UHGV virus genome: UHGV-1527372
Length of the DNA: 19,963 nt
Direction: 5' to 3' (one strand)
Source: a virus
The notes below the pieces were generated by a model. That model did no database searches. It was not told the DNA's origin and worked only from the letters and a program-made list of their open reading frames with translations. How positions within the stretch are numbered: position 1 is the first letter of the stretch; each line of letters opens with the position of its first letter. A program made the translations under genes and the position numbers. Below are positions 17,144 through 19,963 of the stretch, in pieces.

Positions 17144-18190
17144 ATGGGTAAACAAAAATCCCGTAAAGCCAACGCACAAAAGGCCAGCAAACCACAACAA
17201 CTGACCGCCAGCGCACCACCAAAAACGACAGCGTTCACCTTCGGCGAGCCGGTGCCGGTACTCGATAAGCGCGACATTCTGGATTACGTCGAGTGCATCA
17301 GTAACGGCAAATGGTACGAGCCGCCGGTCAGCTTCTCAGGGCTGGCAAAGAGCCTGCGCTCTGCCGTGCATCACAGCTCGCCAATTTATGTTAAGCGTAA
17401 CGTGCTCGCGAGCACCTACATTCCGCACCCGTTGTTATCCCGTCAGGATTTCAGCCGCTTTGCGCTCGATTATCTGGTGTTCGGTAACGCCTTTCTTGAG
17501 CAGCGCCACAGCGTCACCGGCCAGTTAATCAAACTGCTGGCCTCGCCAGCCAAATACACCCGACGCGGAGTCGACGATTCGATTTTCTGGTTTGTGGAAA
17601 ACTTCACCCAGCCGCACGAGTTCGCGCCTGATACCGTGTTTCACCTGCTGGAGCCCGACATTAATCAGGAGATTTACGGTCTGCCGGAATATCTCAGCGC
17701 GCTTAATTCCGCTTGGCTGAATGAATCCGCGACGCTGTTCCGCCGCAAGTATTATCAGAACGGCGCGCACGCAGGCTACATCATGTATGTGACTGACCCG
17801 GCGCAAAGTGCGACCGACGTCGAATCGCTGCGCGAGGCGATGCGTAACTCGAAGGGACTCGGCAACTTTAAGAACCTGTTTTTCTACGCCCCCGGCGGAA
17901 AACCGGACGGCATCAAAATCGTGCCACTGAGCGAGGTCGCCACAAAGGATGACTTTTTCAACATTAAGAAAGCCAGCGCCGCCGACCTGATGGACGCGCA
18001 CCGCGTGCCGTTCCAGCTCATGGGCGGCAAGCCCGAGAATATCGGTTCACTCGGTGACGTTGAGAAGGTGGCAAAGGTATTTGTGCGTAATGAGCTGTCA
18101 CCCCTGCAGGATAGGTTCAGGGAGGTAAACGACTGGCTCGGTATGGAGGTCATCAGGTTCAAAGAGTACACACTCGACAACCCGGAATAA
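17144..18190 (+). CDS. Q: Portal protein Q
   Basis: 348 aa, last gene before cos as in P2. Confidence 0.9.
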   Translation: MGKQKSRKANAQKASKPQQLTASAPPKTTAFTFGEPVPVLDKRDILDYVECISNGKWYEPPVSFSGLAKSLRSAVHHSSPIYVKRNVLASTYIPHPLLSRQDFSRFALDYLVFGNAFLEQRHSVTGQLIKLLASPAKYTRRGVDDSIFWFVENFTQPHEFAPDTVFHLLEPDINQEIYGLPEYLSALNSAWLNESATLFRRKYYQNGAHAGYIMYVTDPAQSATDVESLREAMRNSKGLGNFKNLFFYAPGGKPDGIKIVPLSEVATKDDFFNIKKASAADLMDAHRVPFQLMGGKPENIGSLGDVEKVAKVFVRNELSPLQDRFREVNDWLGMEVIRFKEYTLDNPE

Positions 18191-18200
18191 TCACCTTTTA

Positions 18201-18225
18201 AGCCGCCATTTTGGCGGCTTTTGCT
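18201..18225 (+). terminator. Intrinsic terminator after Q
   Basis: AGCCGCC-ATTTT-GGCGGCT followed by TTTTGCT, 10 nt after the Q stop. Confidence 0.65.
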
Positions 18226-18228
18226 ATG

Positions 18229-18453
18229 TTAGCCTTTAGACTTTTTAGGATCATCTTTTCTCTGATAAGTGCGTTCTTCCTGAATTTTCCCATCTTCCTT
18301 GTGAATTTTGACCGAGCCTGTTTTGTTCGACATAAACTCAGATGTTGTTTTAATCAGCTCGGCCTTTGTGGGCGCGGTCTTGCTAGGGCGGTCATTGCCC
18401 TCTTTTTGCAACTTCCACTTATCGCCATCTTTTGTAATATGATAGTTATCCAT
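18229..18453 (-). CDS. DUF2188-like small protein (moron between portal gene and cos)
   Basis: MDNYHITKDGDKWKLQKEGNDRPSKTAPTKAELIKTTSEFMSNKTGSVKIHKEDGKIQEERTYQRKDDPKKSKG fits the DUF2188 pattern as recalled. Strong GGAGG RBS 5 nt upstream of the ATG at 18453. Markedly AT-rich compared with the phage backbone. Confidence 0.6.
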   Translation of the reverse strand: MDNYHITKDGDKWKLQKEGNDRPSKTAPTKAELIKTTSEFMSNKTGSVKIHKEDGKIQEERTYQRKDDPKKSKG

Positions 18454-18546
18454 TAAAGCCTCCAACTGTTGTGGGGAACATAAAGTCTCAATATGGATAT
18501 TAGCCAAAGCGAAACCGTAAAATTGTGCAACTGATCCCATCCTTTA

Positions 18547-18646
18547 GCACCACGCCACAGACGCACCACGCGCCCACGATCACACCCGGCCACTACAGCG
18601 CCGTCACGACGTTCTCAGACGATAATTTTTAATAATACGCACCACC
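18547..18646. repeat. Three GCACCAC(G/C) direct repeats flanking the cos side (candidate terminase recognition elements)
   Basis: GCACCACG at 18547-18554 and 18563-18570, GCACCACC at 18639-18646, all within about 110 bp of the cos core. Confidence 0.3.
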
Positions 18647-18657
18647 GCTGGCGCGCA

Positions 18658-18676
18658 ATGCTTTCCCCGCCACGCC
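18658..18676 (-). other. cos: cos cohesive-end core, 186-type
   Basis: Minus strand reads GGCGTGGCGGGGAAAGCAT, which matches the 19-nt cohesive end of phage 186 as I recall it (the P2 end differs at two positions); located just beyond Q as expected. Confidence 0.7.
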
Positions 18677-18841
18677 TGCCCGCTTTATGGGTCGGTTTTA
18701 ATGCAGTTGCATGACAACTCTGGATCCGCGCTAGCTCTGGCGGCGCACGGACAGAACGGGCAAGACTGACGCATGCAAAACCATGCACCTGATGCATGCA
18801 CGACTAAAAAACGGGAAATTCGCGGAAAAATGGCATAAAAA

Positions 18842-18863
18842 AACCGGCATTCAGGGTGCCGGT
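18842..18863 (-). terminator. Strong intrinsic terminator ending the post-cos cargo transcript (usable in both directions)
   Basis: Minus strand ACCGGCA-CCCTGAA-TGCCGGT followed by TTTTTTTAT; the plus-strand side is followed by TTTAGTCTGGTTTT. Confidence 0.7.
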
Positions 18864-18884
18864 TTTAGTCTGGTTTTGTCGCGA

Positions 18885-18986
18885 TTAATGGCCGCGCAAT
18901 GCGCCAATAACACTGTTGAGGCACATGCTGGCAACAATCATCAGAAAAATCGTCGTCCACGGATTTTCATAAACGAGAGATAACAT
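18885..18986 (-). CDS. Candidate 33-aa hydrophobic small membrane peptide
   Basis: ATG-initiated ORF MLSLVYENPWTTIFLMIVASMCLNSVIGALRGH with one predicted TM segment; starts 16 nt after the upstream ORF stop with AAGAGGAA upstream (12-nt spacing, suboptimal); ends 20 nt before the terminator. Confidence 0.3.
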   Translation of the reverse strand: MLSLVYENPWTTIFLMIVASMCLNSVIGALRGH

Positions 18987-19002
18987 ATTTATATAGTTCC
19001 TC

Positions 19003-19197
19003 TTATTTGCGCATTCTGATGTGATTTAACAGGTGTTTGATAACGACTGATAGCTCATCTTTACCGGCCTGCTCGACCATTTTTGCGGTGTAGCTTTCCA
19101 CCTCGCGAGAGCTCAGGTCGTTATTTAAAGCCATTAAAGTCAGATTCTTTGCCCAATCGACAAACGGGTCATTTTTCGATGAAAGGGGATTTTGCAT
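19003..19197 (-). CDS. Hypothetical small protein (64 aa), post-cos cargo
   Basis: MQNPLSSKNDPFVDWAKNLTLMALNNDLSSREVESYTAKMVEQAGKDELSVVIKHLLNHIRMRK; ATG with GAGG 9 nt upstream; AT-rich. The 94-aa TTG-start extension in the ORF track would read through the upstream repeat and is not favoured. Confidence 0.5.
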   Translation of the reverse strand: MQNPLSSKNDPFVDWAKNLTLMALNNDLSSREVESYTAKMVEQAGKDELSVVIKHLLNHIRMRK

Positions 19198-19259
19198 GTC
19201 CAAAAACCTCGAATTATTTAACCAGCAGACGGTTGAAGTATTTGCGACGCTATGACCGG

Positions 19260-19328
19260 CTAACGCCTCGCGTAGCTCGTTGTTCAACCCCGCCAGACCT
19301 GAAAGCGAGTTTCAGCTCCGGCGGCGTT
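19260..19328. repeat. 69-bp structured direct repeat, copy 1
   Basis: About 85% identical to 19665-19733; contains the CTGAAA-N5-TTTCAG palindrome inside a longer imperfect stem; begins 2 nt after the stop of the 69-aa ORF on the minus strand. Confidence 0.75.
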
Positions 19329-19330
19329 AT

Positions 19331-19540
19331 CTATGGTCGACGTGGTGGCGGTGAGTAATGTGTCGGCTTGCTGATGCTATCCAGCTTGCCGTAATTATCC
19401 CTGACTATTTCGGCACACCCGACCAGCTCGGCGGGTGTCAAATTCTCATTGACCATTATCTGCTGCAGACGATGAACGATGGCCATCAGTTTGATGCTTT
19501 TAGTTTTGTGCTGCGGAATTTCGCCCGGTAGTCGATGCAT
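19331..19540 (-). CDS. Hypothetical small protein (69 aa), post-cos cargo
   Basis: MHRLPGEIPQHKTKSIKLMAIVHRLQQIMVNENLTPAELVGCAEIVRDNYGKLDSISKPTHYSPPPRRP; ATG with GAGGG 8 nt upstream; flanked on both sides by the 69-bp repeat. Confidence 0.55.
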   Translation of the reverse strand: MHRLPGEIPQHKTKSIKLMAIVHRLQQIMVNENLTPAELVGCAEIVRDNYGKLDSISKPTHYSPPPRRP

Positions 19541-19664
19541 ATTATCGCCCTCAATGAATTTTATTTAGTGCTGCCACAGCGCCACTATAAAACCCACTAA
19601 GGTAACGTCCCATTCATCACTGGTGTGTAACCAATAAAACATCGAGAAACTTTGAGAGGAAGAA

Positions 19665-19733
19665 CTAGCGCCTCGCGGTGCGAGTTGTTCAACCCCGCCA
19701 GCACTGAAAGCAAGTTTCAGCACCGGCAGCGTT
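19665..19733. repeat. 69-bp structured direct repeat, copy 2
   Basis: Same element as 19260-19328, with an additional small hairpin CTCGC-GGT-GCGAG; begins 2 nt after the stop of the partial ORF. Confidence 0.75.
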
Positions 19734-19735
19734 TG

Positions 19736-19963
19736 TTAATGCAGCCAGCTATCGTCCTCCCATACCTGCTGCATGATTTCCATTACTCGTTTTTTATCTT
19801 CGTCCAGTTTCAAACCGCTTAGTTCAACGCCATTAGCGGAGCCCTTGCGAATTCGGATAGCAGTCTTTGGGTAAATAGGTTGAAGATTGCGGTACAGTTC
19901 AGCCTCAAGGTAATGACTCCAACTTATTGATAGTGTTTTATGTTCAGATAATGCCCGATGACT
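19736..19963 (-). CDS. Partial gene (C-terminal 75 codons; start lies beyond the window end), unknown function
   Basis: Open frame from the window edge, ...YLEAELYRNLQPIYPKTAIRIRKGSANGVELSGLKLDEDKKRVMEIMQQVWEDDSWLH*, ending at TAA 19736-19738. Not reported in the ORF track because its start is outside the window. Confidence 0.5.
   Translation of the reverse strand, partial: SHRALSEHKTLSISWSHYLEAELYRNLQPIYPKTAIRIRKGSANGVELSGLKLDEDKKRVMEIMQQVWEDDSWLH

Follow-up and report, generated by a model that had tools for sequence, protein, structure and literature searches.

Independent units at the cos-proximal end of a probably SOS-inducible, partly decayed operon in a 186/PSP3-type Escherichia coli prophage

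The question raised by this locus is whether the small open reading frames (ORFs) beside the cos site of a P2-like prophage form one functional cassette or are separate parts of an operon that is already known. The window is the whole stretch of 19,963 nucleotides analysed here, from the virus genome UHGV-1527372, and the locus occupies its positions 18,885 to 19,963. The first-pass annotation of this DNA had proposed one accessory module of defence, toxin-antitoxin or regulatory type, consisting of a partial gene and ORFs of 69, 64 and 33 aa (p69, p64 and p33). Our analysis indicated a different reading, to which we assign a probability of about 0.75, namely that the locus is the promoter-distal end of an SOS-inducible (p95/tum-type) operon in a P2-like E. 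coli prophage of the 186/PSP3 type (Eganvirus), and that it is a mosaic of independent units with no single cassette. The locus is genuine but unremarkable: it belongs to a variable region of an already known kind, and part of it has decayed, at two places, by an IS1 element within tumB and by deletion of a 143-aa cargo gene. Read along the minus strand, the units would follow each other from IS1 through the last 57 codons of tumB, a hairpin element that we call REP, p69 and a second REP to a decayed cargo module (the stump of the 143-aa gene, p64 and p33), a t95b-type terminator and cos.

The position of the locus had been recognised correctly. The cos region (18658..18677) lies just to the left of it; the ends of the linear 186 record join at 18676/18677, and the alignment to the 186 right end begins at window position 18677. 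The portal gene Q is found at 17144-18190, and gene A lies on the other side in relatives. Rousset et al. (2022, PMC9122126) described the gpA-gpQ locus of P2-like phages as a hotspot whose cargo varies and is often directed against phages. The present locus has both the gpA-gpQ position adjoining cos and a gene content that varies among related phages: the slot behind p69 and its REP holds orf97, gp38, a 223-aa gene, the 143/64-aa pair or nothing, and the distance from p69 to the portal gene ranges from 453 to 2869 nt across loci. Also confirmed were the coordinates of the ORFs, which are all on the minus strand and include the hydrophobic 33-aa frame, and of the strong terminator, as well as the lower GC content relative to the backbone (0.43 at 18801-19200 and 0.50 at 19201-19600, against about 0.55-0.62 elsewhere). 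The intrinsic terminator (18833..18866, minus strand) is equivalent to t95b, the end of the 186 SOS operon; its stem at 18844-18862 is followed by seven T on the minus strand, and it looks bidirectional. A permissive Rfam search of 18100-19963 placed Thr_leader over it at 22.8 bits, against a gathering threshold of 55 (E = 0.2), and this match was set aside as chance.

The first gene had been described as running off the window, which proved to be incorrect, since it is tumB truncated by IS1 at 19909. Between 19736 and the end of the window, the open frame shows 75 residues, of which the last 57 (LEAELY...WLH) belong to TumB and the first 18 are the translated inverted repeat of IS1. What is present of tumB (19736..19908, minus strand) is codons 21-77 and the stop, codons 1-20 having been cut away, so that the reading frame is incomplete. 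The remnant matched the Pfam family PF06183 DinI with E=1.3e-21 and 77.1 bits (cutoff 24.2) over profile positions 7-63 of 63, and also phrog_189, "RecA filament binding protein DinI", which places it in the DinI-like, RecA-filament-binding family. There is no difference between the remnant and the DinI-family gene of E. coli MINF_2E; tumB of PSP3 and the 3' part of 186 tum are homologous to it, and the dN/dS of the remnant is about 0. The first-pass annotation had recognised no P2 gene here and had held that a match to an ordinary early-region gene such as tum would speak against its module; the first gene is now such a match, while the small ORFs are indeed without an assigned function.

The IS1 right end (inverted repeat) occupies 19909..19963 on the minus strand. 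The 55-57 nt at the window end match the IS1A end of plasmid pEc631_2 at 100% identity, and this tail was matched in >9,000 E. coli records. The transposase gene would follow outside the window, in minus-strand orientation and pointing at tumB. Similarity to intact prophages breaks off at 19909. Either a simple insertion of IS1 or an IS1-mediated deletion or rearrangement may have produced this junction, and both fit the sequence visible up to 19963. We infer that tumB is inactivated by IS1 in the window copy.

Relatives with intact synteny, including E. coli MINF_2E (99.5% identity) and the phages SW9, PSP3 and Midge, carry the order A, tumA, tumB (DinI), 69 aa, 64 aa, cos, (DUF2188), portal. 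A perfect LexA box of the CTGT-N8-ACAG type, CTGTATAAATATACAG, is located 22-37 nt upstream of tumA in MINF_2E, and it suggested that the genes of this locus are most likely expressed by SOS-driven read-through. Transcription in the intact relatives would begin at the LexA-boxed promoter ahead of tumA, continue past the REP hairpins, whose operon-strand tail lacks a U-tract, and stop at the terminator, so that p69, p64 and p33 would be produced upon DNA damage or prophage induction. A terminator scan of the operon strand found no canonical terminator between tumA and the p33 region, and a consensus scan found no consensus sigma-70 promoter on the minus strand of the window region. IS1 would be polar on the genes downstream of its insertion. 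The tumA/LexA promoter region of the window copy would fall beyond IS1 and outside the window, and because IS1 separates the three small genes from this promoter, the tail is probably poorly expressed in this copy. In the 186-like prophage BTP5, tum was reported to be the most expressed transcript, with its peak under nitric oxide shock (PMC7067206).

The gene p69 (19331..19540, minus strand) is the backbone-like final conserved gene of the early/SOS operon and not cargo. It matched phrog_11386 at 1.7e-47 over 69/69 profile positions and corresponds to gp37 of PSP3 with 92% identity; homologues are also found in SW9, Wphi and many peduoviruses, and P2 lacks it. The homologues form 184 protein clusters, every one in Enterobacteriaceae-like genera and every one annotated "hypothetical". 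The AF2 model is helical (mean pLDDT 79, core >90) and consists of a helical hairpin with a proline-rich tail. Among 109 non-redundant loci p69 was present in 93, a count inflated by the seeding of the survey with p69 and p64. In peduovirus-type loci, the p69 start overlaps the stop of the preceding early-operon gene (ATAATG), and this arrangement points to translational coupling to the upstream early gene. The window copy is preceded by a conserved spacer of 124 nt (19541..19664, minus strand), which contains a GAGGG ribosome-binding site and a TATAGT -10-like box without a good -35; given this box, a weak independent promoter for p69 may exist. The GAGG-type ribosome-binding sites of p64 and p33 are 11-12 nt from the ATG, further than ideal.

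The two structured repeats noted before were confirmed as copies of REP, an element of 69 nt. On the minus strand, one copy (copy 2, 19665..19733) begins 2 nt past the tumB stop (-35.1 kcal/mol, z -4.3; 94 bits with the covariance model), and the other (copy 1, 19260..19328) begins 2 nt past the p69 stop (-37.8 kcal/mol, z -4.55; 97 bits). The copies are 86% identical, and each is a hairpin of about 18 bp. In an alignment of 93 copies, 94.5% of cells were paired and both sides had changed in 11 of the 18 pairs, a covariation that exceeded all shuffled and all slid controls; the mean column identity was 82%, with a conserved loop and 3' tail. The element is absent from Rfam, and the covariance-model search did not find it in P2 or P4. 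It is found behind p69 in nearly all related loci, and copy 1 forms the upstream border of the variable cargo slot. The assignment of REP as a Rho-independent terminator of the operon strand was rejected, because its tail is GGUUGAACAAC, with no U-tract, and the hairpin, although present, was not called by the terminator scan. The opposite-strand tail, as read from the alignment, is richer (GUUUGYUAU), and in cargo that is read from the cos side, one gene has its stop codon inside REP. Identity with t95a of 186 was also ruled out: 186 has in t95a a canonical terminator distinct from REP, and its REP copy is located after orf97. Intercistronic stem-loops and partial terminators include 186 t95a and the mRNA-stabilising hairpins of the REP/BIME type. 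Like such intercistronic stem-loops, REP is a GC-rich hairpin placed 2 nt past a stop codon and repeated in one operon; in comparison with generic terminators, it is far more conserved in sequence and has no operon-strand U-tract.

Behind this edge lies p64 (19003..19197, minus strand, ATG at 19197), which matched phrog_2454 at 2e-39 over 64/64 profile positions and is predicted to fold as a three-helix bundle (AF2 model helical, pLDDT 75). Its homologues form 53 clusters. An HMM profile search of 1.84 billion representative proteins returned just 12 representatives, which are its own family, and no remote relatives. On the opposite strand, a 19-codon stump, MSKNLELFNQQTVEVFATL* (19196..19255, plus strand), was found by tblastn to match a 143-aa protein known from E. 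coli E66 and phage Midge (CPTMidge_045). The 143-aa gene normally stands head-to-head with p64, and DNA alignment revealed an internal deletion of about 372 nt in the window copy. Here p64 is the surviving half of a two-gene head-to-head cargo module, and our best guess is that p64 would bind or regulate the 143-aa protein that has been lost. The stump had been overlooked in the first-pass annotation.

The last ORF, p33 (18885..18986, minus strand; MLSLVYENPW-TTIFLMIVASMCLNSVIGAL-RGH), is a predicted single-pass membrane peptide. Its Kyte-Doolittle maximum over 19 residues is 2.09 (residues 12-30), so that it belongs to the proteins of <60 aa with one predicted transmembrane helix. The exact peptide was called on at least 1000 contigs in an exact-sequence look-up, and RefSeq/PGAP leaves it unannotated. 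In its distribution, p33 goes with p64 and with the t95b-type terminator. The conservation and coding signature of the small ORFs across related prophages, on which the first-pass annotation had made its reading depend, are present, with purifying selection on p69, p64 and p33 at dN/dS of 0.10, 0.28 and 0.48, respectively. The value for p33 is the weakest of the three, with a range up to 1.49. A less likely possibility is that p33 is not a gene, and that its conservation reflects nucleotide-level elements, such as a terminator or attenuator hairpin (18953-18976) with its T-run or the promoter region of opposite-strand cargo. A terminator-like hairpin with a T-run does lie inside the ORF (18976-18944) and might halt transcription before p33 is fully transcribed. 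The median dS of 0.15, against 0.42 in the adjoining p64, fits constraint on the DNA or RNA itself, the excess of variable sites at the third codon position is weak (16, 15 and 25 at positions 1, 2 and 3), and the missing RefSeq/PGAP annotation agrees with this. On the other hand, 30 of 35 distinct relatives retain the frame with its ATG, GAGG/AGGA box and stop position, no indels occur within the ORF while many are found in the spacer just behind it, and the hydrophobic-core pattern survives substitutions. Moreover, the alignment indicated that the internal hairpin is not kept in the most diverged relatives. The consensus scan found no promoter-like site opposite p33, and there was no Rfam match in the region. 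Under the preferred reading, p33 would be translated, and our best guess is that it would act at the membrane, for example as an exclusion or toxic peptide; p69, p64 and p33 together would be small accessory proteins of the induction phase.

Another explanation takes p64 and p33, originally with the 143-aa gene, as a still-active accessory unit, so that copies lacking the 143-aa gene would represent a functional variant and not decay. For example, SOS-induced p33 might shut out superinfecting phage or harm the membrane, with p64 modulating it. Such an arrangement is supported by the joint occurrence of p64 and p33 in 40 of 43 loci, with p33 lacking p64 in 2, and by the frequency of the variant without the 143-aa gene (16/43), which keeps p64 and p33 intact in relatives including the diverged SW9 (about 91% DNA identity). 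The transmembrane segment predicted in p33 is clear, and orf97 of 186, which has the same position, blocks 186 infection when expressed from a plasmid, according to the annotation of the 186 record. However, there is no homology to a characterised exclusion protein or toxin, the dN/dS of p33 is just 0.48, and 6 of 35 distinct relatives have a frameshift in the ORF or no longer have its start. In the window copy, IS1 also cuts the unit from its likely promoter. We consider a still-active unit, including the example given, unlikely.

Two further readings, REP as a dedicated boundary, terminator and swap element and p33 as a toxic or excluding membrane peptide, single-pass and induced by the SOS response, are offered tentatively and are rather improbable. 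In the first, REP would delimit the cargo slot of P2-like phages and would be, as far as found, a previously undescribed element. It would act as a strand-asymmetric convergent terminator that is leaky for the SOS/early operon and efficient for cos-side cargo, and would also serve as a homology anchor for swapping cargo cassettes.

The view that the partial gene and the ORFs of 69, 64 and 33 aa make up one cargo module (toxin-antitoxin, defence or small regulatory) is very improbable. The ORFs are co-directional and closely spaced, share one terminator, sit in a locus of defence cargo and are AT-richer than the backbone, all of which is in line with a module. Against this, the first gene has a known counterpart in 186 and PSP3, namely tumB/DinI, and in peduoviruses p69 shows coupling to the early operon. 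The co-occurrence check showed that the ORFs are not one unit: p69 was found without p64 in 66 loci and p64 without p69 in 16, in a survey of 109 non-redundant loci whose seeding with p69 and p64 biases these counts toward loci holding either. Hairpins, the gene stump and the 124-nt spacer separate the units, while typical toxin-antitoxin pairs overlap. Family searches pointed in the same direction. PADLOC gave no significant match for p69, p64, p33 or TumB, the best match to the small ORFs being PtuB for p64 (E = 0.029, 12 bits), which is noise. No toxin or antitoxin family was matched by the small ORFs in Pfam or NCBIfam; NCBIfam gave zero matches of any kind for them, and the weak Pfam matches to VBS, YqgU, DUF883_C and Gp37 (E 0.03-0.2) were each under their own cutoff and were discarded. 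The fold and profile comparison proposed for the 69-aa and 64-aa proteins did not help the module either, as the best PDB sequence profiles (E 0.67 for p69 and 0.097 for p64) were not meaningful and Foldseek against the PDB returned nothing at E < 1 for either model. The single-module explanation is largely refuted by the co-occurrence data; of the earlier description, the operon tail in a hotspot stands and the single accessory module does not.

That the small ORFs arose by chance in non-coding DNA near cos, which their shortness and the longer than ideal ribosome-binding-site spacing of two of them might suggest, deserves next to no credence and is already refuted for p69 and p64 by the full-length PHROG matches, the low dN/dS of both, the confident helical AF2 models and conservation across E. 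coli, Salmonella, Citrobacter, Klebsiella, Enterobacter and other genera.

The operon end described here is best compared with the SOS operon of 186, annotated as p95 (LexA), tum, t95a, orf97 and t95b. Both share the place between gene A and cos, a DinI-like protein upstream (the Tum C-terminal part in 186, TumB here) and the terminator ahead of cos, the "p95 transcript terminator" t95b of 186 being at the equivalent site, where one copy of the 69-nt REP directly precedes it. In the intact relative of the window copy, a LexA box stands in front. They differ in that Tum is split into tumA and tumB in the window lineage, as in PSP3, that orf97 (243 aa) is missing and p69, p64 and p33 are in its place, and that the t95a-type terminator after tumB is replaced by a REP hairpin. 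The Salmonella phage SW9 has the identical order tumA, tumB, 69 aa, 64 aa, cos, whereas in PSP3 the slot is occupied by gp38 (139 aa) in place of p64 and p33; the window copy differs by IS1 in tumB. The tin/old locus of P2 covers the same cos-adjoining gpA-gpQ interval with strongly variable gene content among relatives. However, tin and old are transcribed from a cos-side promoter toward A, while the three small genes here are read along with the early/SOS operon. A recognisable defence gene is missing from the window copy, and P2 has neither p69 nor REP.

TisB and DinQ are SOS-induced small membrane toxins of E. coli. The predicted p33 peptide resembles them in its length of about 30 residues, its one hydrophobic helix and its place downstream of a LexA promoter in intact relatives. 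It differs from them in that no sequence similarity was found and no antisense RNA or dedicated leader is evident, and in being the last cistron of a phage operon and not a stand-alone type I locus.

Taken together, the cos-proximal hotspot of this prophage is nearly empty, with no recognisable defence system, and it should not count as a candidate toxin-antitoxin or defence cassette. The three small proteins p69, p64 and p33 are widespread orphans downstream of a LexA-controlled phage promoter and are therefore cheap to test. REP and the small membrane peptide are the sole parts that deserve follow-up; REP stands consistently after the last conserved early gene, marking the start of the cargo, and could aid automatic delimitation of cargo in P2-like prophages. 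On the far side of cos, the DUF2188 gene matches the PADLOC candidate PDC-S16.

The window belongs to a P2-like prophage of E. coli; prophages from complete genomes match 97% of it at up to 98% identity. The end of portal gene Q is at 18190, and cos is placed at 18676/18677, the point at which the two ends of the linear genome record of phage 186 come together. To the right of cos, the sequence aligns with the right-hand ends of two Salmonella phages, SW9 and PSP3, of Escherichia phage Midge and of numerous E. coli prophages, which share the gene order A, tumA, tumB (DinI family), a 69-aa gene, variable content and cos. In 186, the equivalent position is annotated as an SOS operon consisting of p95 with a LexA site, tum, the partial terminator t95a, orf97 and the terminator t95b, and the orf97 annotation states that 'expression from plasmid blocks 186 infection'. 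The interval between replication gene A and portal gene Q is reported to be a hotspot that takes hundreds of different arrangements and includes many genes still untested (PMC9122126; PMC13586616), in agreement with the hotspot placement in the first-pass annotation. In one 186-like prophage of Salmonella, strong expression of the tum transcript under stress has been reported (PMC7067206). The stretch 18885-19963 is the tail of an operon that is already known, lying in a hotspot that is known as well. Its parts form a mosaic: a truncated tumB, a small backbone-like gene, and a cargo module in decay made up of the stump of a 143-aa gene, the 64-aa gene (p64) and the 33-aa ORF (p33). Copies of a conserved hairpin stand between them, and a t95b-type terminator closes the series.

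Four minus-strand frames were found again: p33 (18885-18986), p64 (19003-19197, ATG at 19197), p69 (19331-19540) and a frame that stays open from 19736 up to the end of the window. The last element of this series is a terminator at 18833-18866 that combines a hairpin with seven consecutive T. Two 69-nt direct repeats, here called REP (19260-19328 and 19665-19733), are 86% identical to each other, each starts 2 nt past a stop codon, and the hairpin that each forms is long, with a z-score near -4.4. The GC content of the stretch is 0.43-0.50 versus about 0.55-0.62 in the structural genes. Since the ORF list, the hairpins and the GC content agree with it, the anatomy drawn earlier was accurate, with one important exception.

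This exception is the first gene, which had been described as running off the window and matching no recognised P2 gene. Its translation matches Pfam DinI at 1.3e-21 as well as phrog_189, identifying it as tumB, a relative of 186 tum that is cut by IS1 at 19909. Identity to intact tumB stops at this position, and 19909-19963 is an IS1 end with 100% identity. Only TumB residues 21-77 are left, and the initial 18 residues of the 75 aa reported earlier are IS1 read-through. The tumB/IS1 junction was absent from all 5,426 complete E. coli genomes searched. The window ends inside this element, beyond which a deletion or rearrangement may have occurred. An intact relative in E. coli MINF_2E, 99.5% identical to the window in this region, carries a perfect LexA box, CTGTATAAATATACAG, 22-37 nt upstream of tumA, and a terminator scan of its operon strand upstream of the p33 region found no canonical terminator. 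The likeliest expression route would be transcription from the tumA promoter, with SOS-driven read-through into p69, p64 and p33. The IS1 transposase would read in the operon direction, and in the present copy IS1 probably blocks this read-through.

p69 corresponds to gp37 of PSP3, and its match to phrog_11386 covers the full protein. The 184 protein clusters of this family all come from Enterobacteriaceae-like genera, and all are annotated as hypothetical. Its N-terminal 53 residues are highly conserved in the alignment and its proline-rich tail is variable; the dN/dS is 0.10, and structure prediction gives a helical hairpin whose core has a pLDDT above 90. It was found in 93 of the 109 non-redundant loci surveyed, a proportion inflated because the loci were fetched with the 69-aa and 64-aa proteins as queries. 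The gene is present in Wphi but not in P2. Its upstream neighbour is tumB, orf97 or, in peduovirus-type phages, an orf91-like gene, whose stop overlaps the p69 ATG (ATAATG), which indicates translational coupling within the early operon. From this distribution, conservation and context, p69 behaves as the final conserved gene of the early/SOS operon and not as cargo.

p64 matches phrog_2454 at full length, with a dN/dS of 0.28 and a predicted three-helix bundle (pLDDT 75). Its family is tiny, with 53 clusters, and a profile search of 1.84 billion proteins recovered only 12 representatives. At 27 of 43 loci p64 stands head-to-head with an opposite-strand 143-aa gene, which is strongly constrained (dN/dS 0.07) and whose product matches no Pfam or PADLOC family. 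The start codons of the intact pair overlap in CATG, so that in intact loci the promoter of each gene must lie inside or beyond the other. An internal deletion has removed about 372 nt of the 143-aa gene in the window and 15 other loci, here leaving a 19-codon stump on the plus strand (19196-19255). The starts of p64 and the stump still share the palindrome CATG at 19195-19198, with zero intergenic space. In two relatives (L014 3245-3677, Entomohabitans; L048 3001-3433, an IMG/VR contig), p69 follows p64 directly, with only a few initial codons of p33 between them, and thus these units are reshuffled in nature.

p33 is probably a real gene. It lies 3' of p64 in 40 of 43 loci and occurs without p64 in two; its ATG, frame and stop position are retained in 30 of 35 distinct relatives, and the ORF is free of indels although the spacer up to the terminator is full of them. 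It encodes a single clear hydrophobic helix, and at least 1000 public contigs carry a call for exactly this peptide, in each case as 'uncharacterised'. However, among the three ORFs it has the weakest evidence of coding (dN/dS 0.48 with low dS), six relatives have a frameshift or lost start, and codons 4-15 (18944-18976, minus strand) contain a terminator-like hairpin followed by CGATTTTTCT. This hairpin is kept in close relatives but not in those that have diverged most.

A single toxin-antitoxin or defence module, as proposed earlier, is unsupported: the units are mosaic, p69 is backbone-like and does not co-occur with p64 as a shared unit, and searches with the small proteins, including the suggested profile comparison of the 64-aa and 69-aa products, returned nothing significant in Pfam, NCBIfam, PADLOC or PDB sequence profiles. 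A literature search found nothing on p69, p64 or p33.

REP lies directly 3' of p69 in almost all loci, with an extra copy after tumB in the window lineage and one after orf97 in 186; the site is always just past the stop of one of these genes. Positions of the element outside the window include L005 213-281 and L130 4007-4087. Over 93 copies, 94.5% of cells in the main helix are paired and 11 of 18 helix pairs show two-sided changes, values that no shuffle or slid control approached; sequence conservation extends to the loop and the 3' tail. With a covariance model, exactly two copies were found in the window, one each in Wphi and 186, and none in P2 or P4, and an Rfam search did not find the family. 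The hairpin lacks a U-tract on the operon strand, the opposite-strand tail is more U-rich, and the end of REP contains the stop of the 143-aa gene, which is convergent. From these sequence features, we suspect that REP acts on operon transcription as a leaky barrier and terminates cargo transcripts from the cos side more effectively. Possibly, it also serves as a recombination anchor. Its 3' arm CCCCGCCAGACCTG (19288-19301 and 19693-19706) resembles the cos core CCCCGCCACGCCTG (18665-18678) at 12 and 11 of 14 positions, respectively, which may be chance.

On the other side of cos, a minus-strand DUF2188 gene of 103 aa (18229-18540) lies between the portal gene and cos and matches phrog_3220 and, in PADLOC, the candidate defence family PDC-S16 (1.4e-14). 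Just 7 of 109 related loci have it, so a second variable slot exists across cos. As read from the sequence, the hairpin aagccgccattttggcggctttt at 18195-18222, which separates the convergent genes for the portal and DUF2188 proteins, resembles a bidirectional terminator. The closest prophages are about 3.5-7 kb longer than the window across the matching interval, and an nSTAND1 NTPase or an IS21-family element is present in some of them; cargo thus varies at other places in the window too.
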